Of a DNA stretch of 64,000 nt, positions 4,738 to 57,588 are shown piece after piece. Origin of the DNA: Minisyncoccota bacterium. Its GTDB lineage: Bacteria; Patescibacteriota; Minisyncoccia; UBA6257; 2-01-FULL-56-20. The stretch's first letter is position 1; each line of letters opens with the position of its first letter. The notes under the pieces are model-generated. The model was given only the letters and a program-made list of their open reading frames with translations, did no database searches and had not been told where the DNA came from. The position numbers and the translations under genes were made by a program. The stretch covers positions 8,695-72,694 of the forward strand of contig JBAYLC010000005.1 of NCBI GenBank assembly GCA_041664245.1, given 5' to 3'.

Positions 4738-5823
4738 ATGAATATTTCTGTAAAAGGAAAAAAAGTCGTAGTGTTTGATACTTTGGGGCCGCATTCCAAG
4801 CAGAATTTATGTTTTGATCCGAGCGTAGCAAAAGAGAAATGGTATCATCACTGTGCTTCTTATTTCTATGAAGAGTGCCAAAAAAAAGGTATTCAACTTA
4901 TTACCACCGATATTTATTTTGCCTTGTCAGAAAAACCAAAGGCTATCTGTATGCGAGAACGCATTGATGTGGACATGAGTACGTCACTCGCCCTACAAAA
5001 ATCCGGGGTGCGGCTTGCGGTTATTAGAAATTCTGAAAATCCGTTATATGCCTGCCGTTTTTTTTGGAACCTCGAAAGGCTTACGAGCTATTTTGATCAT
5101 TCAGTCGTGGTAAAAGGTGTAAAAGATTGGGTATCGCCTAAAAGCCATTTCCATCCGTGGTTTATCCCTCACGCATATTACAGCCAAATTCATGAAGTGC
5201 AATCAGACTTCCGCAAAAAAAAGTTTCTCGTTCTCATTCAACGGAATGCGAGGATACATTGGTTGCGCCGTTTATATGTGTCCGGGTTGAATTTTATAAA
5301 ACCTCTGCCAAATTTCGTAAACCAGGAAGGGTATCTTAATCGGCTAGAAGCCATAAAATATTTCTCTCAATATCCTGATTTTGATTTATATGGAATGTGG
5401 TGGGATAAACCAGTTCGCTATACACGCAAATATGACGAATCTATTCGAAAATCATATCGTGGGGCTGTTGAAGATAAATTCGCATTATTGAAGCAGTACA
5501 AGTTTTCTCTTATATTTGATAATGCTTATTTAGGGGGGATGGTACATGAGAAAATGACTGATTGTCTTTATGCCGGTTCCGTCCCGATTTATTGGGGGGC
5601 GCCAGACATTGCCGATATTTTCCCAGCTAATTGTTTTATTGATTTCAGGAAATTCGGTTGTGATTTTGCCCGCCTTAATGAATATCTACGCGCTATGGAC
5701 GAAAACACCTATAACGACTACATTAAAAATATCAATAAATTTATATCCTCGCCTGCAGCCTACAATCTAAGTCAAGAAAAATACACGGGCGATATGATAA
5801 AAATTTTTGAATCGTATTTTTAA
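4738..5823 (+). CDS. GT10 alpha-1,3-fucosyltransferase
   Basis: YKFSLIFDNAYLGGMVHEKMTDCLYAGSVPIYWGAP matches the FucT motifs YKFxLxFENS...YxTEK...PIYWG of Helicobacter FutA/B. Immediately downstream of the GDP-fucose genes. Confidence 0.8.
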   Translation: MNISVKGKKVVVFDTLGPHSKQNLCFDPSVAKEKWYHHCASYFYEECQKKGIQLITTDIYFALSEKPKAICMRERIDVDMSTSLALQKSGVRLAVIRNSENPLYACRFFWNLERLTSYFDHSVVVKGVKDWVSPKSHFHPWFIPHAYYSQIHEVQSDFRKKKFLVLIQRNARIHWLRRLYVSGLNFIKPLPNFVNQEGYLNRLEAIKYFSQYPDFDLYGMWWDKPVRYTRKYDESIRKSYRGAVEDKFALLKQYKFSLIFDNAYLGGMVHEKMTDCLYAGSVPIYWGAPDIADIFPANCFIDFRKFGCDFARLNEYLRAMDENTYNDYIKNINKFISSPAAYNLSQEKYTGDMIKIFESYF

Positions 5824-5829
5824 AGACAT

Positions 5830-6774
5830 ATGTCATCTAAAAAAATTCTTATAACCGGCGGGGCGGGCTATATTGGATCGATATTGGTTCCGGAGTTATT
5901 ACGAGCGGGGCACGAGGTAACCGTTATTGATAATTTTACCTATAACCAGTCCTCGCTTTTGGATGTTTGTAATTTTCAAACCCTTACCCTGATTCGCGGT
6001 GACGCTCGTGATGAAAAAATAATCTCCCAGCACATTAAAGAAAAGGATTTTATTATTCCGCTTGCTTGCGTTGTTGGTGCTCCTGCTTGTAATAGAGACC
6101 CAGTTGCCGCTCGCACCATTAATCTTGAAGCAGTAGAACTTATTCTAAAACTTCGCGAAAAATGTCAAAAAATTATTTTTCCCAATACCAATAGCGGCTA
6201 TGGTCGGATGGCCGAAGGTGTCGCATTTTGTGATGAAACAAGTACTCTCGATCCAATCTCGCTTTACGGCAAACTAAAAGTGCAAGCGGAAAAAGAACTG
6301 CTCGAAGCGGGAAACGCGATCACTTTACGACTCGCTACCGTCTTCGGGATTAGTCCTCGTATGCGCCTCGATCTTCTTGTGAATGATTTTGTTTATCGCG
6401 CCGTTAATGATGGGGCCGTTGTATTATTCGAGCCTCATTTCAAACGTAATTATATTCACATCAGAGATGTGGCGGGTGCCTTTATGCATGCGATGGAAAA
6501 TTTTGAAAAAATGAAAAACGAACCCTATAATGTCGGTCTTTCAGACGCTAACTTAAGTAAGATTGAACTTTGTGAGGAAATAAAAAAGCAAATTCCCAAC
6601 TTTGTTTTCATAGAATCAAAAATAGGAGAAGATCCTGATAAACGGAATTATATTGTAAGTAATACTAAAATTGAAAATATGGGTTTCAAGCCCCGAATAT
6701 CGCTTACCGAGGGAATTTCTGAGCTGATCAAGGGTTATCAAATTATTAAAAGAAATAACTTCTCTAATCTCTAG
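5830..6774 (+). CDS. NAD-dependent sugar epimerase/dehydratase (extended SDR)
   Basis: ILITGGAGYIGS Rossmann motif and extended-SDR length. Confidence 0.8.
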   Translation: MSSKKILITGGAGYIGSILVPELLRAGHEVTVIDNFTYNQSSLLDVCNFQTLTLIRGDARDEKIISQHIKEKDFIIPLACVVGAPACNRDPVAARTINLEAVELILKLREKCQKIIFPNTNSGYGRMAEGVAFCDETSTLDPISLYGKLKVQAEKELLEAGNAITLRLATVFGISPRMRLDLLVNDFVYRAVNDGAVVLFEPHFKRNYIHIRDVAGAFMHAMENFEKMKNEPYNVGLSDANLSKIELCEEIKKQIPNFVFIESKIGEDPDKRNYIVSNTKIENMGFKPRISLTEGISELIKGYQIIKRNNFSNL

Positions 6775-6880: not shown

Positions 6881-8392
6881 ATGAGTCGTTTAGACGCAGT
6901 TTTTGTTATCCCTGGCAACCTCACTCAGGTTTACCAAGTTTTTGCTAAAGAACACGCCATCGAACCGCCTATTTTCGCCCTCTGGATAGCGTCTCATCTA
7001 GAGAGCAAAGGGTATAGTTTCGAATTTATTGATGCCGTGCCGTCCAATCTTTTTCCAGAAGAAGTTGCTGCTGAAGTCGTTCATCTCAACCCAAGACTTG
7101 TTATTGTACCTGTCTATGGTTCTCAACCTTCTGCTTCAACTCAAAACATGCCAGCCGCGCGAAGAACGTGCCAAGCAATAAAAGATCTCAAGCCAGATCA
7201 AAAAATCCTCGTCACTGGCACCCATCCCGCGGCATTACCAGAGCGAACTCTTAGGGAAGAACCAGTGGATTTTGTTTGCGACGGTGAAGGTCCCACAACT
7301 CTTATCGAAATTCTCGAGGTCTTGAGAAATGGGGATGATGTTTCCAATGTGGGAAGTCTTTGGTACTGGGAAAGTGGGAAACCCAAATACACTCATCCGG
7401 CGCGGAATGTTACCGAACTTGAGTTTGATCCGGACATCTGGCGATTTCTTCCGATGAGTCGCTACATTGCCCACGATTGGCATACTGGTTATCGAGATTT
7501 TGCGTCTCGCAAGCCCTACGCTTCTATCCTAACTACGCTTGGTTGTCCTTTCCGATGTTCATTCTGCTGCATTCAAACTCCGTTTAGAGCGGGTGAGGCA
7601 GCTATAGGGCGTAATCCAAAATCGAACTCTTACCGTTTCTGGTCGCCGCAGGTCATCATCAAAACCATAGAAGTGCTCGTTAGAAAGTATGGTATGGAGC
7701 ATATCAAGATTCACGATGAGTTATTCGTCTTGAATCAAAGGCATGTGAGTGCCATTTGCGCTTTAATCAAAGAACGCTTCAACGATGATTTGAATATTTG
7801 GGCTTACTCTCGTGCCGACACAGCCCAGCCTAAGTCTTTAGACATCCTAAGGGCGGCCGGGATTCGTTGGCTAGCTGTTGGTATTGAGCGCGACGGTAAA
7901 AACAAATCTTTTTCTGGCGAGGATATACTCCGAGTTAGAGAAATGATTAAGGATGCTGGTATTAAATTAGCGGCGAACTACATTTTTGGACTGCCCGGTG
8001 ATACCAAGGATAGCATGCAGGCTACACTAGATATGGCTCTGGCAATAAATTCGCCATTCGCTAATTTCTATTGTGCTATGGCTTACCCCGGTTCCGAACT
8101 CTATGAGGAAGCCGTAAGAAGAAATTTACCATTGCCAGATAGTCCTGGTGGTCCCGGTTGGATTGGTTACTCTCAGCACGCCTACGAAGCCACGCCTCTT
8201 CCGACCGATTCTCTTTCCGCCGCAGACATTCTTCGTTTTAGGGATGAAGCCTGGAGGAGATACTACACCAACCCAAAGTTTCTTTCCATGCTTCAGGATT
8301 GGTATGGTGAAAACGGCGAAGAAGCAGAGAGAAACATAAAAAAAATGACCTCTCTATCTCCCCTCCGCCGAGCGCTTTTCGAAAAAACATGA
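6881..8392 (+). CDS. B12-binding-domain radical SAM enzyme
   Basis: N-terminal cobalamin-binding Rossmann-like domain. Cys cluster CPFRCSFCC (CxxxCxxC plus an extra C), then a TIM-barrel-length region. Class-B radical SAM architecture. Confidence 0.8.
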   Translation: MSRLDAVFVIPGNLTQVYQVFAKEHAIEPPIFALWIASHLESKGYSFEFIDAVPSNLFPEEVAAEVVHLNPRLVIVPVYGSQPSASTQNMPAARRTCQAIKDLKPDQKILVTGTHPAALPERTLREEPVDFVCDGEGPTTLIEILEVLRNGDDVSNVGSLWYWESGKPKYTHPARNVTELEFDPDIWRFLPMSRYIAHDWHTGYRDFASRKPYASILTTLGCPFRCSFCCIQTPFRAGEAAIGRNPKSNSYRFWSPQVIIKTIEVLVRKYGMEHIKIHDELFVLNQRHVSAICALIKERFNDDLNIWAYSRADTAQPKSLDILRAAGIRWLAVGIERDGKNKSFSGEDILRVREMIKDAGIKLAANYIFGLPGDTKDSMQATLDMALAINSPFANFYCAMAYPGSELYEEAVRRNLPLPDSPGGPGWIGYSQHAYEATPLPTDSLSAADILRFRDEAWRRYYTNPKFLSMLQDWYGENGEEAERNIKKMTSLSPLRRALFEKT

Positions 8393-8415
8393 TTGACGAC
8401 AGTTTAAGTTATTCT

Positions 8416-8955
8416 CTAACGAGGGCTTTTTTCGGAGTCCTCGTTTTTTATTTTATGAATTATTTTTGTAGTTGATATTTTTTCAAATTCAGGCGGGCAG
8501 TACCTATCAAGGATAACAAGTTCGACCCCTGTCTTTTGAGCTATTATTTTTCGATAAGGAATATCTCCTGCGTCCTCGTTGATCACGTAAATATCAGGCT
8601 TGAGTTTGTTCAAGGCCACTTCTATAGACCAAAGGACATGATTATCTCCCGGTATTATCTCATCCATAAAACAATAATCTACTGGCCTTAAGGAATCCAC
8701 CATCTTTAAACGAACATGCTGATTTAAAATAGGGCGGTGGTTACCTTTATTACTTCTAATTGCAGCATCACACCCCACCATAACCACTAGTATGTCTCCG
8801 CGCATTTTGCAATCTTCAAAAAAAAGCACATGCCCGGCATGAGTGACATCAAAACTACCAGAGCAAAAAACAATTTTTTGATCCCGGTGTCTGTTTCTTA
8901 TAATCGCTACATCTTCTAATTTCGTGACCGCCATTAGTGAAAGAATATAACACAA
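8416..8955 (-). CDS. cytidylyltransferase-like nucleotidyltransferase (TagD / HldC family)
   Basis: SGSFDVTHAGHVLFF (HxGH) and C-terminal ISTTKI motif. The only minus-strand gene in the first 17 kb. Confidence 0.7.
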   Translation of the reverse strand: MCYILSLMAVTKLEDVAIIRNRHRDQKIVFCSGSFDVTHAGHVLFFEDCKMRGDILVVMVGCDAAIRSNKGNHRPILNQHVRLKMVDSLRPVDYCFMDEIIPGDNHVLWSIEVALNKLKPDIYVINEDAGDIPYRKIIAQKTGVELVILDRYCPPEFEKISTTKIIHKIKNEDSEKSPR

Positions 8956-9189
8956 ATCAATCCATTTACAATACAGAGTGATTCAGTCGTTGTCCTCATC
9001 ACGCTCCTTTTTTGCCCAACGAATATCTTCGCACTATGGACGAGAACATCCGCAACGGGTATATTCGAGATATTGAGTTCATAATTTCCCCAATAGTATA
9101 TGCAATAAACTAGAATAGATAGGTGGGTGATATAATAATTATTTTGAATTATAAAAATTAAAGAAAATAATCTAAACAAGCTTAAAAGC

Positions 9190-40996: not shown

Positions 40997-42331
40997 TTAT
41001 TTTCCCGCAAAAGTCAGAATAGTTTTCAGGGTTTTTAGAACTATCAATAAATCCAGAACGAACGATCGGTTTTTCACGTAATAAATATCATAAGCTAGTC
41101 TTTCTATTGCTTCGTCCACCGAGCTGCCATATTTGTCCTGCACTTGCGCCCAGCCGGTTAATCCTGGTGCGATCACGGTTCTAATTTGATAATGAGGTAT
41201 TTTTTCCTTTAATAATTTATAAAAATCAACGAAATCCGCTCTTGGCCCGACGAAAGATAATTCTCCTCTTAGTATATTTATCACCTGCGGCAATTCATCC
41301 GCCCGCACTTTCCGAAGAATTTTTCCGATTCTAAAAACTCTTCCGTCATTTTCTACAACTCCGAACTCGGTGCCAACTTTTTTAAATTCATCGCTTCCCA
41401 CGCTCATCGTTCTAAATTTAAAAAGGGTAAAAATTTCTTCTTTTCTGCCCACTCTCTTATTGAGAAAAAAAGCCGGCCCTTTTGAGCTCGCCTTTATAAG
41501 TAGGATAATAAGCGGCCAAATCCAAATCGTAATTATTAAAACGATAAATGCCAATATTGAATCCTCAATTCTCTTAGCTATAATGTACAATCCGTTCCGT
41601 GGCCTTATCTTATCCAAAAACCAACTTTCCTCAAGCTCATCGATGGAGACTTTTCCCATAATCGCTTCATAAAATTCAGAAAAAGATGAGATCTCAACCC
41701 CCCTTAAAAGCTGTTTATATATTCTCTCTGCCATATCGCGATCGCTCTTTAAACTTGCTGGAATAACTAAAACATCATATCCGCCGTTACCAATTAAACT
41801 TTTTATTACTTCCAAGTCTAAATCATGAACCCAATGTAAAACCTTATATCCAAGCTGCGGATTATCAGTAAGGCAACTCACTAATTCTTCCGCATCTCTG
41901 CCTTTTCCAATAATACAAACCCCCATAAGCGGACTTGATTGTAGATAATGTTTGCACAAAAATTCCCTGAAAGAAAAAATAAGCACCCCGAAAATAATAA
42001 TCAAAAGAACTAAAATGGTTTTTGGCGCAATATCGAAATAGGGGAGTAAATAAAAAAACAAAATCGCCAAAACTGAGAATAAAATTATTCCAGTTAAAAA
42101 AAGTTTTACTCGCTGCATTCGTCGTCGGAATTTTCTAAGGTCATACAGGCCCACTATATAAAAAACAATCAGACCGAATAGAAGCAGAAAACTAAAAGGC
42201 CAAAGATGAAGCTTAAAAAGTTGCCAATTGAAACTCTCTGTATTCCTTATCAGGAGGGATAGGAAAAGGGCAAAGTAAAAAGAAAGCACGTCGAATATAA
42301 AGAATGAAAGTTTTTTTGTAGTCGTTTTCAT
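40997..42331 (-). CDS. undecaprenyl-phosphate sugar phosphotransferase (WbaP/PssY-type initiating enzyme)
   Basis: N-terminal TM bundle. C-terminal Bac_transf block RPLIIL...KRVGRKEEIFTLFKFRTM...DELPQVINILRGELSFVGPR. Confidence 0.9.
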   Translation of the reverse strand: MKTTTKKLSFFIFDVLSFYFALFLSLLIRNTESFNWQLFKLHLWPFSFLLLFGLIVFYIVGLYDLRKFRRRMQRVKLFLTGIILFSVLAILFFYLLPYFDIAPKTILVLLIIIFGVLIFSFREFLCKHYLQSSPLMGVCIIGKGRDAEELVSCLTDNPQLGYKVLHWVHDLDLEVIKSLIGNGGYDVLVIPASLKSDRDMAERIYKQLLRGVEISSFSEFYEAIMGKVSIDELEESWFLDKIRPRNGLYIIAKRIEDSILAFIVLIITIWIWPLIILLIKASSKGPAFFLNKRVGRKEEIFTLFKFRTMSVGSDEFKKVGTEFGVVENDGRVFRIGKILRKVRADELPQVINILRGELSFVGPRADFVDFYKLLKEKIPHYQIRTVIAPGLTGWAQVQDKYGSSVDEAIERLAYDIYYVKNRSFVLDLLIVLKTLKTILTFAGK

Positions 42332-42462
42332 ATAGCTCTTGTTCTACTACTTTTAGAGGTCTTTTAGCAAGTCCCAGCCTTCTCTATGGACCCACTTAAT
42401 TATATTACTTTATTTCCCTATTTTCTTGACAGCCTCCTCAAGGAGGTGTTACAATCGAGACC

Positions 42463-43164
42463 ATGGATAACGAAAATAAAAATAATATGATGTTGCCGGT
42501 AAGCATCATCGTCGCTGCCATCTTGATTTCCGGCTCGATTTTTTTAGTCGTTGGAAATAAAAATTCCAATAATCCTGACGGGTTAGCTCAAGTTGGCGCC
42601 CAAGTTCCGGCCGATGTCAGTAAGGTCACCGACCAAGATGTTGTCTTAGGCGACACCAAGGCTCCGGTTTCTTTTATCGTTTATGCTGACTATCAATGTC
42701 CTTTTTGTGGAAAACTGTTTTCTGAAACAGAGCAGCCGATTATCGATACCTATGTAAAAACCGGCAAAGTTAAATTAGTCTATCGTAATTATTCGTTCCT
42801 CGGTCCTGAATCTTTTGCCGCCGCCGAAGCAGCTGAGGCTGCAAGAGAGCAAAGTAAATTTTGGGAATTCCACGATGCAATCTATCAAGCCGAAATTAAA
42901 GACGGCAAAGAAAACAACGGTAATCTTAACCGCGATTTATTCTTAAAAATTGCCGCCAACCTGAAATTAGATATTAAAGTTTTCACAGCCGCTATTGATA
43001 GCAAAAAATATGCTGACCTGATCAAAAAGCAAAGCGAAGCTGCCAATGCCGCCGGCATTAATTCCACTCCGGCCGTTTTTATTAATGACCAGAAAATTGA
43101 AGGGGCCTTACCTCTCGATCAGTTTAAAACAGTTATCGACGGAATTTTGGCTAAACAAAAATAA
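42463..43164 (+). CDS. DsbA-family thiol:disulfide oxidoreductase (membrane-anchored)
   Basis: N-terminal TM helix and CPFC active site (YADYQCPFCGKL). Confidence 0.8.
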   Translation: MDNENKNNMMLPVSIIVAAILISGSIFLVVGNKNSNNPDGLAQVGAQVPADVSKVTDQDVVLGDTKAPVSFIVYADYQCPFCGKLFSETEQPIIDTYVKTGKVKLVYRNYSFLGPESFAAAEAAEAAREQSKFWEFHDAIYQAEIKDGKENNGNLNRDLFLKIAANLKLDIKVFTAAIDSKKYADLIKKQSEAANAAGINSTPAVFINDQKIEGALPLDQFKTVIDGILAKQK

Positions 43165-43330
43165 TTTATATTGCGATTAAGTTAGCGTCGGCGCGACGAA
43201 TTCGTTTCGCCCGTTAATCAAAATCAAAAAAGGGCGAAAAACTCGCGTTTAATAAGTCTAACTATCAAGTTATTTTTCGGAATCAATTCGGAAAACACCT
43301 TATTTATCTCGGGTAAAAATAAATCAATTA

Positions 43331-43504
43331 ATGGATTATCAAAATAATCGGGAAGAGCGGAAGATGTTCAAGGGTGACTGGGCCTGTTCGAAATGTGGCG
43401 CTAAAATCACCGAACTTCCTTTCGAGCCGGATCCAAGCCGTTTGGGCCAGCTTCTCTGCCGCGACTGTCATCGTTCGATGCGGCAATCTTTCCGCCGTTA
43501 CTAA
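43331..43504 (+). CDS. 57-aa zinc-ribbon protein (CxxC...CxxC)
   Basis: Hand-translated: MDYQNNREERKMFKGDWACSKCGAKITELPFEPDPSRLGQLLCRDCHRSMRQSFRRY. Absent from the track because it is under 60 aa. Supersedes overlapping ORFs 43328-43510(-) and 43374-43598(+). Confidence 0.5.
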   Translation: MDYQNNREERKMFKGDWACSKCGAKITELPFEPDPSRLGQLLCRDCHRSMRQSFRRY

Positions 43505-43610
43505 TTTCATCTCGGAGGTGAAATTATTCCGCCTGCCCGTCCGAAATATTGCTCAGCAATATGAAGCGAGAATTGCATTCAGGGATTACGATAAATAATG
43601 CAACAAAAAA

Positions 43611-43650
43611 CTCCCACCCCGCTATTTAGCAGAGACGGGAGTTTTTTATT
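43611..43650. terminator. hairpin flanked by A- and T-tracts (bidirectional intrinsic terminator)
   Basis: AAAAAA-CTCCC...GGGAG-TTTTTTATTTT. Confidence 0.5.
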
Positions 43651-43685
43651 TTAAGAGTTTTCAAAAACCCAGCACGTTCGACAAT

Positions 43686-43725
43686 AAAAAAAACGGCCTC
43701 TCGCTTGCATAAAGCGAGAGGCCGT
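43686..43725 (-). terminator. strong intrinsic terminator for a minus-strand transcript
   Basis: Perfect 12-13-bp stem CGGCCTCTCGCTT/AGCGAGAGGCCG with a 6-nt loop. On the minus strand it is followed by TTTTTTTT. Confidence 0.7.
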
Positions 43726-43956
43726 CGGATTTAGTATCAACTAGTATCCCTCTAGCAGAGCGACAATCCCCGCGAGGAAAGCGTATTACATTATTTACAG
43801 TGATTAATCGCAAGATCACCGCTCCACCTCAAAGGACACGAGCTAAACCCATACTAACTCCAATTCGAATTTTCTAACCTCCTTCGCCAATTGTTCAAAT
43901 AACTAATCTCCGGTTGTTAAACCCCAATCTTTCATGGTTTTCCCAACCTCTAGACT
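43686..43956 (-). ncRNA. candidate about 270-nt small RNA (unclassified)
   Basis: Bounded by the consensus promoter and the strong terminator above. Longest internal ORFs are about 10 aa. Confidence 0.4.
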
Positions 43957-43962
43957 ACGACA

Positions 43963-43990
43963 ATTATAACAAACCCCCAAAAATTGTCAA
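43963..43990 (-). promoter_or_regulatory. consensus sigma70 promoter on the minus strand (TTGACA-16 bp-TATAAT)
   Basis: Minus-strand reading: TTGACAatttttgggggtttgtTATAAT. No ORF follows before the terminator at 43725. Confidence 0.6.
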
Positions 43991-44059
43991 TGCATTCGAA
44001 AATTTAATAAAATCAGCTCTTCCTCCAGTTTTTATTAAGTGCTAAAATGGCCATAACTT

Positions 44060-44278
44060 ATGCTCAAATATAAAATTCAAATTTTTGTCGGCCTTTGGCT
44101 GATTATCTCTCCATGGCTATTTGGCGTGGATCAAGTTTTTCTTCTCAAGTGGAGTAATATTGCCGTTGGTCTTTTTATCTCACTGTCTGGTCTCTGGGAA
44201 GTGTTTGGTGAAAAACCAATTACAACCGGAACCGAAAAAACCGAACCAAAAAATTACAAGTCGAACCCTAAACTTTAA
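44060..44278 (+). CDS. SPW-repeat small membrane protein
   Basis: Two TM helices. LIISPWLFG carries the SPW motif. Confidence 0.55.
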   Translation: MLKYKIQIFVGLWLIISPWLFGVDQVFLLKWSNIAVGLFISLSGLWEVFGEKPITTGTEKTEPKNYKSNPKL

Positions 44279-44296
44279 ACCCTATTAGTTAATTCA

Positions 44297-45214
44297 ATGT
44301 ATGATCTGATAATTATCGGCGGCGGCCCTGGCGGCGTTTCTGCCGGCATCTATGCTGCCCGAAAAAAAATCAAAGCTCTGCTTATCACCGAAACCTTCGG
44401 CGGCCAGTCTTTAGTTTCGGCCGACATCCAAAATTGGATCGGCACCAAATCAATTTCCGGTTTTGATTTAGCGAAGTCTTTAGAAGAACATCTCAAAGCC
44501 CAAGAGGGGATAGAAATACTTGAAGGCGACCTCGTCGATTCCATTTCAAAAAAAGACAGCGGGTTTGAAATAAAAACCAAAGCCGGGAAATCATTTGAAA
44601 CTAAATATATTCTAGTTGCCTCCGGGAGCCGCCGCCGAAAACTTGGCGTTCCCGGAGAAGCTGAACACGACGGAAAAGGCGTAGCTTATTGCTCAATCTG
44701 CGATGCCCCGCTTTTTAACGGCAAAGAGGTGGCCGTAATCGGCGGTGGCAACGCCGGCCTTGAAGCCGTAATTGATCTCTTTCCCTACGCTTCCAAGATT
44801 TATCTTTTAGAATTTAGCGATGCCTTGAAAGGTGATCCCGTTACCCAAGAAAAAATTAAATCTAATCCTAAGATAGAAATTATTTTTGGCGCCAAAACTT
44901 TAGAAATTATAGGCGACACAAATGTTTCCAGTCTTAAGTATCTCGACCAAAAAAATAACGAAGAAAAAACTTTAGCCGTTCAAGGAGTTTTCATTGAAGT
45001 GGGAATCGCTCCTAACTCTGAATTTATGAAAGGTTTGGTAAATATAAATAATTTTGACGAAATTACCGTTGATCCTAAAACTTATCAAACTTCTTCTCCG
45101 GGGATCTGGGCAGTAGGGGATGTCACTGATTCTCTATATAAGCAAAATAACATCTCCGTCGGTGAAGCCGTCACGGCAACTCTCAATATTTACGAAAAAA
45201 TAACCAAAAGCTAA
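44297..45214 (+). CDS. trxB: thioredoxin reductase-like FAD/NAD(P) oxidoreductase
   Basis: YDLIIIGGGPGGVSAGIYAARK, redox CSICDAPLF (CxxC), GGGNAG second Rossmann motif. Confidence 0.85.
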   Translation: MYDLIIIGGGPGGVSAGIYAARKKIKALLITETFGGQSLVSADIQNWIGTKSISGFDLAKSLEEHLKAQEGIEILEGDLVDSISKKDSGFEIKTKAGKSFETKYILVASGSRRRKLGVPGEAEHDGKGVAYCSICDAPLFNGKEVAVIGGGNAGLEAVIDLFPYASKIYLLEFSDALKGDPVTQEKIKSNPKIEIIFGAKTLEIIGDTNVSSLKYLDQKNNEEKTLAVQGVFIEVGIAPNSEFMKGLVNINNFDEITVDPKTYQTSSPGIWAVGDVTDSLYKQNNISVGEAVTATLNIYEKITKS

Positions 45215-45393
45215 TCTATTGACAAATTTGTATATTCACAATATAATCTAAACCTCAAAAATAGTGTGTTAAATACACGCTTTTTTTGTTTCCAGCAACT
45301 TTATAAGAATTAAATAGGAAGGGAAAAGTAGTAATTCAGATCTATAAAAAAGCAGCAATCGTTCACTAATCCACAGAAAGAGAGGAAAAAGAA

Positions 45394-46353
45394 ATGAGGA
45401 AAGCCCTGCTATTTTCAATTATCTGCCTTTTGGCGATGACAATTTTTGGTTGTTCTGAGAGCCCCGTGTCACCGCCGAAAGAAAATCAATCTGGAAGTCT
45501 TCAGAGAGCCGGCGTTCTAAAGAAGGCCAGCGTCTTGGTCCAGGCGAAGTTTATGTTGCCGATGGTGGAAAAAAACTCCATCACGACTACATTCGTTTCA
45601 CTCTCGGATGATAGAAGGATCACCTCTCATATTACTCCAACGATGTCTCCGTCTGGAAACTACTACACATTTGAAGTATACGTCAGTCTACCGGCTTCGT
45701 CGGCGGGAACTCTTTATCGTTTCAAAGCGATTCTCGGACAACCCAATGATAATGCTCCGGCCGATTCAGTTTGGCCGGACAGAAACGTAACAGGCTGTGT
45801 TTTCCTAAACGGCATGGAGCCGAGTTATGGAAACAAGAACGAATTGTACTTCAAGGTATATCCCAACGGGACCGTTCTTATTGATGTCCAGAACGATGTC
45901 AAAGAGCTAGGGGAGAATATTTACCCCAAGTCGTATCTTGGGGTCATGGTTAACAAAGAACCAGACGGTAAGATTCATCAAATCGAAATCTCGGTGTTTA
46001 GATTAATTCCTGGCCGCCGGGGTAGTTTAATCTTGCAGCCAGTTTTCATTCCCGCGGAGATATTCTCCGGGGCAATACCGCCACTCGGAACAACTTGTTC
46101 CGGACTGGTTTCGTTTATTGGTCCAGCGGATGCCTGGACAAGGACTATCATGCCGAACCCGACGGAAGACGTGTACCTGACCGTTAGAGTCAGGTACTAC
46201 TCCGAAAGTTACGGCACCCAGGTGGTCCAGGAAATTTCCAGGGCTTCATTCGTTTTCTTTAGAACACCGGGATACAGGTGTGATTATCCTGGTTGCGATT
46301 TCCCGGTCTTCAAGATACCAGCTGCCGGTGGATGTGGTAACGGCAAAGGCTAA
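45394..46353 (+). CDS. hypothetical lipoprotein
   Basis: Signal peptide with lipobox (MTIFGC). No recognisable domain. Confidence 0.5.
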   Translation: MRKALLFSIICLLAMTIFGCSESPVSPPKENQSGSLQRAGVLKKASVLVQAKFMLPMVEKNSITTTFVSLSDDRRITSHITPTMSPSGNYYTFEVYVSLPASSAGTLYRFKAILGQPNDNAPADSVWPDRNVTGCVFLNGMEPSYGNKNELYFKVYPNGTVLIDVQNDVKELGENIYPKSYLGVMVNKEPDGKIHQIEISVFRLIPGRRGSLILQPVFIPAEIFSGAIPPLGTTCSGLVSFIGPADAWTRTIMPNPTEDVYLTVRVRYYSESYGTQVVQEISRASFVFFRTPGYRCDYPGCDFPVFKIPAAGGCGNGKG

Positions 46354-57501: not shown

Positions 57502-57588
57502 GGAGGGTTCGCATAGTGGTCTAGTGCGCAGTCCTGGAAAGACTGTGTGGGGAAACCCACCGAGAGTTCGAATCTCTCACCCTCCGCC
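57502..57588 (+). tRNA. tRNA-Ser (anticodon GGA)
   Basis: Manual fold. Acceptor GGAGGGT/ACCCTCC, D-arm CGCA...TGCG, anticodon stem CAGTC/GACTG with loop CTGGAAA, long variable arm TGGGGAAACCCACC, T-arm GAGAG-TTCGAAT-CTCTC, discriminator G. Confidence 0.85.

Follow-up and report, generated by a model that had tools for sequence, protein, structure and literature searches.

Among the trans-encoded small RNAs that carry a sigma-70 promoter and a Rho-independent terminator of their own are E. coli OxyS, Bacillus SR1 and RoxS. OxyS is transcribed divergently from oxyR. Another group of non-coding RNAs, which includes SreA/SreB and Rli55 of Listeria and EutX of Enterococcus, is terminated by a riboswitch or an attenuator. 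To our knowledge, regulation in Parcubacteria/CPR bacteria is almost unknown. We know of no small RNA that has been characterised in the reduced-genome Parcubacteria, and a literature search on small or structured RNAs in CPR/Parcubacteria returned nothing relevant. Here, we describe a minus-strand transcription unit from an uncultured member of the Paceibacterota (Parcubacteria). It lies in a stretch of 64 kb that was analysed as a whole and that we call the window. With the trans-encoded small RNAs the unit shares a stand-alone intergenic position, a strong promoter, a GC-rich hairpin with U-tract at the 3' end, several hairpins, a non-coding nature and a narrow lineage range, and its divergent orientation to a redox-related gene recalls that of OxyS. 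Unlike OxyS, SR1 and RoxS, to which it has neither sequence nor model similarity, it would measure ~270 nt and is longer than most of these RNAs. In our judgement the chances are about even that the unit is an independent, lineage-specific non-coding RNA gene of ~265-272 nt.

The features of the locus are given below in window coordinates. L084 denotes the one related locus in which the unit was found again.
42463-43164, plus strand: gene for a DsbA-like thioredoxin-fold protein
43365-43505, plus strand: gene for a treble-clef zinc-ribbon protein of 46-57 aa (Pfam zf_Tbcl_2, E 5e-7)
43530-44059: lineage-specific segment present in the window and L084 only; it includes the RNA gene, the two terminators and the new region with the divergent promoters
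43608-43646, both strands: bidirectional terminator, A6-hairpin-T6
43684-43726, minus strand: intrinsic terminator of the RNA, 14-bp perfect GC-rich stem, 5-nt loop, U8
43727-43861, minus strand: predicted long hairpin with imperfect pairing, 135 nt; ~46 pairs, including 13 G.U
43863-43900, minus strand: predicted stem-loop 2 with a purine-rich, Shine-Dalgarno-like loop GAAGGAG
43904-43957, minus strand: predicted stem-loop 1, outer stem UAGUCU/AGAUUA, inner stem GGUUG/CAACC
43963-43990, minus strand: sigma-70-type promoter of the RNA, 12/12 consensus, extended -10
43990-43985, minus strand: -35 hexamer TTGACA of this promoter
between TTGACA and TATAAT, minus strand: its 16-nt spacer, ending in TGT
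43971-43970, minus strand: its extended -10 TG
43968-43963, minus strand: its -10 hexamer TATAAT
43984-44013, plus strand: candidate SPW-trxB promoter TTGTCA-18-TAAAAT, 10/12 consensus
from 44060, plus strand: gene for an SPW-repeat membrane protein
from 44297, plus strand: gene for a trxB-like reductase

The earlier note on this DNA had drawn attention to a sigma-70 promoter on the minus strand that faces a GC-rich hairpin followed by T8. Both elements are confirmed. The promoter matches the consensus hexamers at all positions and has the TG of an extended -10 in addition, and the hairpin proved to have a stem of 14 bp. Three copies of TTGACA-N16-18-TATAAT are present in the window, where dinucleotide shuffles would lead one to expect 0.02. 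The terminator reads ACGGCCTCTCGCTT-TATGC-AAGCGAGAGGCCGT followed by T8 on the minus strand; another scan counted 15 pairs in its stem. It has the longest stem and is the strongest of the three hairpins in the window that combine a perfect stem of at least 10 bp with a T run, and ten shuffles of the window contained none. On the plus strand no T run follows the hairpin, and hence the terminator is unidirectional. Transcription is predicted to start at ~43956/43955, the end of the -10 hexamer lies 237 nt from the terminator hairpin on the same strand, and the predicted RNA runs from ~43956 to 43692-43684, which gives 265-272 nt. Promoter and terminator are each far above chance, on one strand and in the correct order, and a promoter and an intrinsic terminator of its own in an intergenic region are what marks a trans-encoded small RNA. 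The proposal of a discrete non-coding unit from promoter to terminator on the minus strand is therefore supported by the statistics of the two signals, and also by the lack of conserved reading frames described below.

The other two perfect promoters of the window lie on the plus strand. One (TTGACA-17-TATAAT, 45219-45247) is followed after ~16 nt by a 7-bp hairpin with a T run (45263-45291), ~100 nt upstream of a 319-aa hypothetical gene at 45394; this arrangement may represent an attenuator or give rise to a very short transcript. The other (1466-1494) is probably an internal promoter, placed inside the 3' end of a 473-aa ORF (203-1624) and upstream of a gene at 1608.

The gene order around the unit is sugar transferase (minus strand), DsbA-like protein, zinc-ribbon protein, bidirectional terminator, RNA (minus strand), SPW protein, TrxB-like protein, a hypothetical protein, groES and groEL. 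Transcription of the RNA gene converges with that of the zinc-ribbon gene and diverges from that of SPW-trxB. The -35 element of the candidate SPW-trxB promoter, which is conserved in L084, overlaps the -35 element of the RNA promoter back to back. The bidirectional terminator lies 40 nt beyond the RNA terminator; on the plus strand it terminates the convergent zinc-ribbon gene, and on the minus strand it serves as a second stop behind that of the RNA. Rfam matches at this element were terminator-like noise only. No minus-strand ORF follows the RNA, since beyond the second terminator this strand is antisense to the zinc-ribbon gene and dsbA, and the next minus-strand gene ends at 42331. The absence of a downstream gene and the two consecutive terminators argue for a stand-alone RNA and not for a leader, and because of the two terminators the RNA is not expected to run antisense into the zinc-ribbon gene. 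In place of the zinc-ribbon gene itself, some gene callers annotate an antisense ORF of 60 aa. A look-up of the zinc-ribbon protein for further contigs returned the source contig only. The TrxB-like protein is identical in a contig of a JGI metagenome, and two further assemblies are identical across the locus; its relatives all come from Paceibacterota/Parcubacteria MAGs, for example Liptonbacteria, Colwellbacteria and Harrisonbacteria.

The RNA belongs to no known RNA family. At gathering thresholds, a scan of the whole window with Rfam 15 found a tRNA-Ser and left the RNA unit unmatched; none of the 6S, SRP, tmRNA, RNase P, riboswitch or T-box models matched it. In the sensitive mode, applied to the RNA region with its flank and to the L084 orthologue, there were only sub-threshold matches, nearly all of them on the terminator hairpins. 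The best leader models were PyrR with 21.5 bits (gathering 54) and the PyrG leader with 24.2 bits (gathering 65), both on the terminator hairpin only. ARAGORN reported no tmRNA and a single tRNA-Ser at 57502. The Infernal scan that the earlier note had proposed therefore yielded no known housekeeping RNA, and its statement that no SRP, tmRNA or RNase P signature is evident holds for Rfam at gathering thresholds, for the sensitive mode on both orthologues and for ARAGORN.

The RNA unit is not protein-coding. It had been stated that no ORF longer than about 10 codons lies between promoter and terminator. This is correct for ATG starts (MKDWGLTTGD and MGLARVL) and incorrect for GTG and TTG starts, from which frames of 52, 29 and 25 codons open. 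None of these three survives in L084 when all frames are compared; the 52-codon GTG frame is truncated there. The 10-codon ATG frame has lost its start in L084 (ATG to AAG) and gained a stop. A reading of the unit as a small ORF was rejected on this comparison, in which the 7-codon ORF MGLARVL is the sole frame kept, with one synonymous change. Six indel events of 1-2 nt each separate the two sequences within the RNA. Since the ORFs are not maintained between the two sequences and the indel lengths are not divisible by three, we regard the unit as non-coding. No Pfam match was obtained for its translated frames.

The fold of three hairpins and a terminator was predicted independently for the window and for L084. 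Stem-loop 1 is the best-conserved part of the RNA (91% identical to L084). In stem-loop 2 the GAAGGAG loop is identical in both, and two adjacent G.U pairs become A-U in L084. The long hairpin carries an invariant block of 22 nt, UUAGUAUGGGUUUAGCUCGUGU, at its 5' base; its apical region (43807-43776), which contains UUUCCUCGCGG, is AU-rich and weakly paired. For the whole RNA the folding z-scores are -5.5 (window) and -3.1 (L084). The terminator accounts for much of this; once it is removed, the values become -3.0 and -1.5, and they do not consistently beat those of the opposite strand. A consensus of the two sequences (RNAalifold) has 86 pairs, 19 of which changed on one side and are still paired, while none is broken and none has changed on both sides. 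In the covariation check suggested earlier, the one-sided changes thus keep the pairing, and the two orthologues provide no double-sided change. The count of 19 kept and none broken is biased by the way in which the consensus is chosen. As a fairer test the minimum free energy (MFE) fold of each sequence was taken as reference and the same substitutions were re-placed at random; 15 pairs were kept and 7 or 5 broken, with P ~0.064 in either direction. With two sequences and a P of about 0.06, the evidence for a selected RNA structure is no more than suggestive.

The dsbA-(zinc ribbon)-SPW-(glutaredoxin)-trxB cluster is widely syntenic in Parcubacteria, compact and on one strand. Four close lineages were compared with the flanking proteins as handles:
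L084 (TrxB 91%, SPW 96% identity): RNA unit present
L085, GCA_036171875.1 (TrxB 91% identity): RNA unit absent
L109 (SPW 81% identity): RNA unit absent
L088 (TrxB 72% identity): RNA unit absent
The unit is likewise absent from the syntenic slot of ~80 more distant relatives (GTDB loci). In L085 and L109 the slot measures ~110 nt and consists of the zinc-ribbon terminator and a compact SPW promoter of ~45 nt. Judged by these absences, the unit seems to have been inserted recently or to have replaced other sequence. On the most parsimonious course, the common ancestor of the window lineage and L084 would have gained a segment of ~0.4-0.5 kb (~43530-44059), which would have taken the place of the ancestral SPW promoter region. 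Both nhmmer and a covariance model of 290 positions built from the two orthologues (R1) matched only the window and L084 when run against the window and 83 related loci (1.3 Mb). Metagenome scans with a 20-mer from the invariant block, and with a pattern of the promoter and purine/pyrimidine-coded positions, gave no match; viral scans gave nothing or chance 16-mer matches without extended similarity, and blastn against phages and plasmids found no match to the unit. The orthologues thus number two, after syntenic contigs had been sought via 5.8 billion proteins in addition to the 80 GTDB loci and the metagenome and viral scans.

A miniature repeat or mobile element was considered for the segment and rejected. 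It is present in a single copy in the window and in none elsewhere in the related loci, its boundaries show no target duplication, and none of the searches of phages, plasmids, viruses and metagenomes matched it. The long hairpin is not a DNA palindrome, because 13 of its ~46 pairs are G.U. Other intergenic slots of the redox cluster also seem prone to small insertions in different lineages. A gene for a four-helix bundle resembling 23S-rRNA-intervening-sequence/bAvd proteins lies between groES and groEL in L084 (8612-8971) and just upstream of trxB in L007 (9610-9969). In a comparison with L004, L005, L007, L010, L012, L057, L064 and L076, most relatives proved to have a 78-aa glutaredoxin/NrdH-like gene between SPW and trxB. 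This gene is missing at 44278-44297 in the window, as it is in L084, L085 and L088, and tblastn found no copy anywhere in the 64-kb window.

Conservation between the window and L084 differs along the locus. The promoter differs by one substitution in its spacer, while its hexamers, TG and spacing are unchanged, and the RNA terminator keeps 13 of 14 stem pairs with one internal mismatch. The body of the RNA is 88% identical excluding gaps and 84% including them. For comparison, identity at four-fold degenerate sites is 77.5% when eight neighbouring genes are taken together (64-67% in dsbA and trxB), and the ordinary intergenic region 42300-42499 is 55-69% identical. The 5' half of the RNA is 90% identical and the 3' part 78%, so that the 3' part seems to evolve at a nearly neutral rate. 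For the 5' half, constraint is plausible, not proven. Since divergence across the locus is uneven (95-99% identity in the zinc-ribbon region, 90% at the four-fold sites of the SPW gene), the 90% of the 5' half could be local neutrality.

The zinc-ribbon block is a separate observation. Across 43200-43600, the gene together with its flanks, identity to L084 amounts to 95-99%, and in the upstream part L085 is nearly identical too. The neighbouring coding genes are 84-93% identical to those of L084, and their four-fold sites 64-90%. The conservation of the block reaches synonymous sites and non-coding flanks, which suggests an overlapping function at the RNA level or a recent recombination tract.

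Target searches covered the window and gave no pairing that stood out from shuffled controls. Duplexes of the full-length RNA were long-loop artefacts within the null range of the shuffles. With windows of 30 nt, the best duplex with any of the 61 translation-start regions of the 64-kb window scored -31.9, against a null best of -30.6. Among the neighbouring mRNAs only dsbA paired marginally better than shuffles, at a site within the least conserved segment of the RNA. An apparent inverted repeat between the 3' UTR of the zinc-ribbon gene and the apical region of the RNA was discarded, as at the RNA level it is a similarity in the same sense and not a complementarity.

Several other explanations of the unit have to be weighed. 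The recently inserted segment might serve as a bidirectional promoter that drives SPW-trxB, in which case the leftward transcript would be incidental and without function and the terminator would merely insulate the zinc-ribbon gene. The relatives that lack the segment, L085, L109 and L088 included, manage with a compact SPW promoter, which is in line with this idea, as are the back-to-back overlap of the two -35 elements, the near-neutral rate of the 3' part of the RNA, the borderline structure statistics and the lack of targets among the start regions and neighbouring mRNAs. However, it is the leftward promoter that is perfect (12/12 with TG), while the one facing SPW is weaker (10/12). In addition, all 14 promoter positions and the dedicated terminator were kept in both lineages over a background divergence of 12-22%, and the bidirectional terminator would already insulate the zinc-ribbon gene. 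We regard a functionless transcript as unlikely, though with a real chance of being correct, and as the foremost rival of the RNA-gene reading. A cis-regulatory leader is quite improbable. Such a device would sense a ligand or protein and control read-through antisense to the zinc-ribbon gene, or it would be the orphaned leader of a lost gene. A structured stretch of ~230 nt does precede the terminator, and the convergent gene downstream is unusually well conserved, synonymous sites and flanks included (95-99%). The unit resembles SreA/SreB, Rli55 and EutX in that an extended structured transcript stops at an intrinsic terminator and no ORF follows, but in contrast to these the RNA matches no aptamer family and no anti-terminator alternative was recognised. 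Riboswitch, T-box and PyrR models remained without a match (best 21-26 bits against gathering thresholds of 54-65, all on the terminator hairpin), and inspection by eye gave no convincing anti-terminator pairing. Moreover, read-through would have to pass two consecutive terminators, the spacer between them is not conserved and has a 16-nt deletion in L084, and no minus-strand ORF lies downstream.

The earlier note had also suggested a 6S-like RNA, and a 6S-like or Ms1-like RNA that binds RNA polymerase would fit a non-coding, highly structured transcript with a strong promoter and a long imperfect helix; with 6S RNA (RF00013) it shares the non-coding nature, the structure, the probable abundance and the helix. 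This suggestion found no support, and we rate its likelihood as close to negligible. The 6S models found no match in either the window or L084 even at E<=10 in sensitive mode. Neither the MFE fold nor the centroid or the consensus of the two sequences pairs the 5' end with the 3' end, so that the closing stem and the rod shape of 6S are lacking, and the weakly paired region is apical instead of forming a central bubble. The length of ~270 nt exceeds that of 6S RNA (about 185 nt, 160-200 nt), and the RNA is absent from the locus in sister lineages, with no copy in 1.3 Mb of related loci. It is also very improbable that the unit encodes a small protein or derives from a decayed gene, for instance from the 5' end, now inverted, of the gene for a CCA-adding enzyme. 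The gene for this enzyme does fill the dsbA-SPW slot in L016 (5086-6672), L018 (~5066-6553) and L026 (~7543-9069), and the 5' end of the RNA (frame VGKTMKDWGLTT) aligns weakly with GKTPKDWDLTT of the L016 gene (nhmmer E 0.04-0.09, tblastn E 0.33). A small protein could be seen in the conserved 7-codon MGLARVL. However, a profile of five related CCA N-termini scored 7.5 bits on the window and -0.8 on L084, and Pfam PolyA_pol had no match at E<=10; on these tests the remnant was rejected. The unit lacks a counterpart of VYENxFGTVG, the next CCA motif and a strongly conserved one; it runs in the opposite direction to cca in the relatives, and stop codons break the frame in both lineages. The resemblance to GKTPKDWDLTT is probably due to chance. 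A remnant of the glutaredoxin gene that relatives carry between SPW and trxB was rejected as well, as no trace of it was found in the window.

A novel regulatory small RNA is the best reading of the unit, and as a reading from sequence it is unproven. The consensus promoter with its extended -10 would fire leftwards from ~43956, and the predicted fold of the transcript has two short hairpins in the 5' part, followed by a long imperfect one. Release would take place at the dedicated strong intrinsic terminator, with the bidirectional terminator 40 nt beyond. The segment that holds the unit sits between the zinc-ribbon gene and SPW-trxB, within a conserved thiol-redox/chaperone cluster. We infer that such an RNA would be made abundantly and regulate in trans. 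Its action would most likely run through the better-conserved 5' half, that is stem-loop 1, the exposed GAAGGAG loop and the invariant 22-nt block, which may pair with pyrimidine-rich RNA sites or bind a protein. A link to redox genes is suggested by the promoter that stands back to back with that of the trxB operon, which is context and not evidence. It is doubtful, and we give it only a slim chance, that the unit represents a new class of structured RNA, recently acquired by a reduced-genome CPR bacterium and highly expressed, which is wired back to back with the trxB operon and controls the thiol-redox or chaperone genes or sequesters a protein. If this were true, it would represent the very recent birth of a small RNA by insertion in a group where riboregulation is essentially unexplored.

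On present evidence the unit is one more orphan small RNA and bears on no long-standing question. If it is expressed, it would be among the very few concrete candidates for a small RNA gene in Parcubacteria/CPR. Its presence in two lineages and absence from their nearest relatives date its origin narrowly, and the locus may therefore be useful for studying how new RNA genes originate and become wired beside existing operons.
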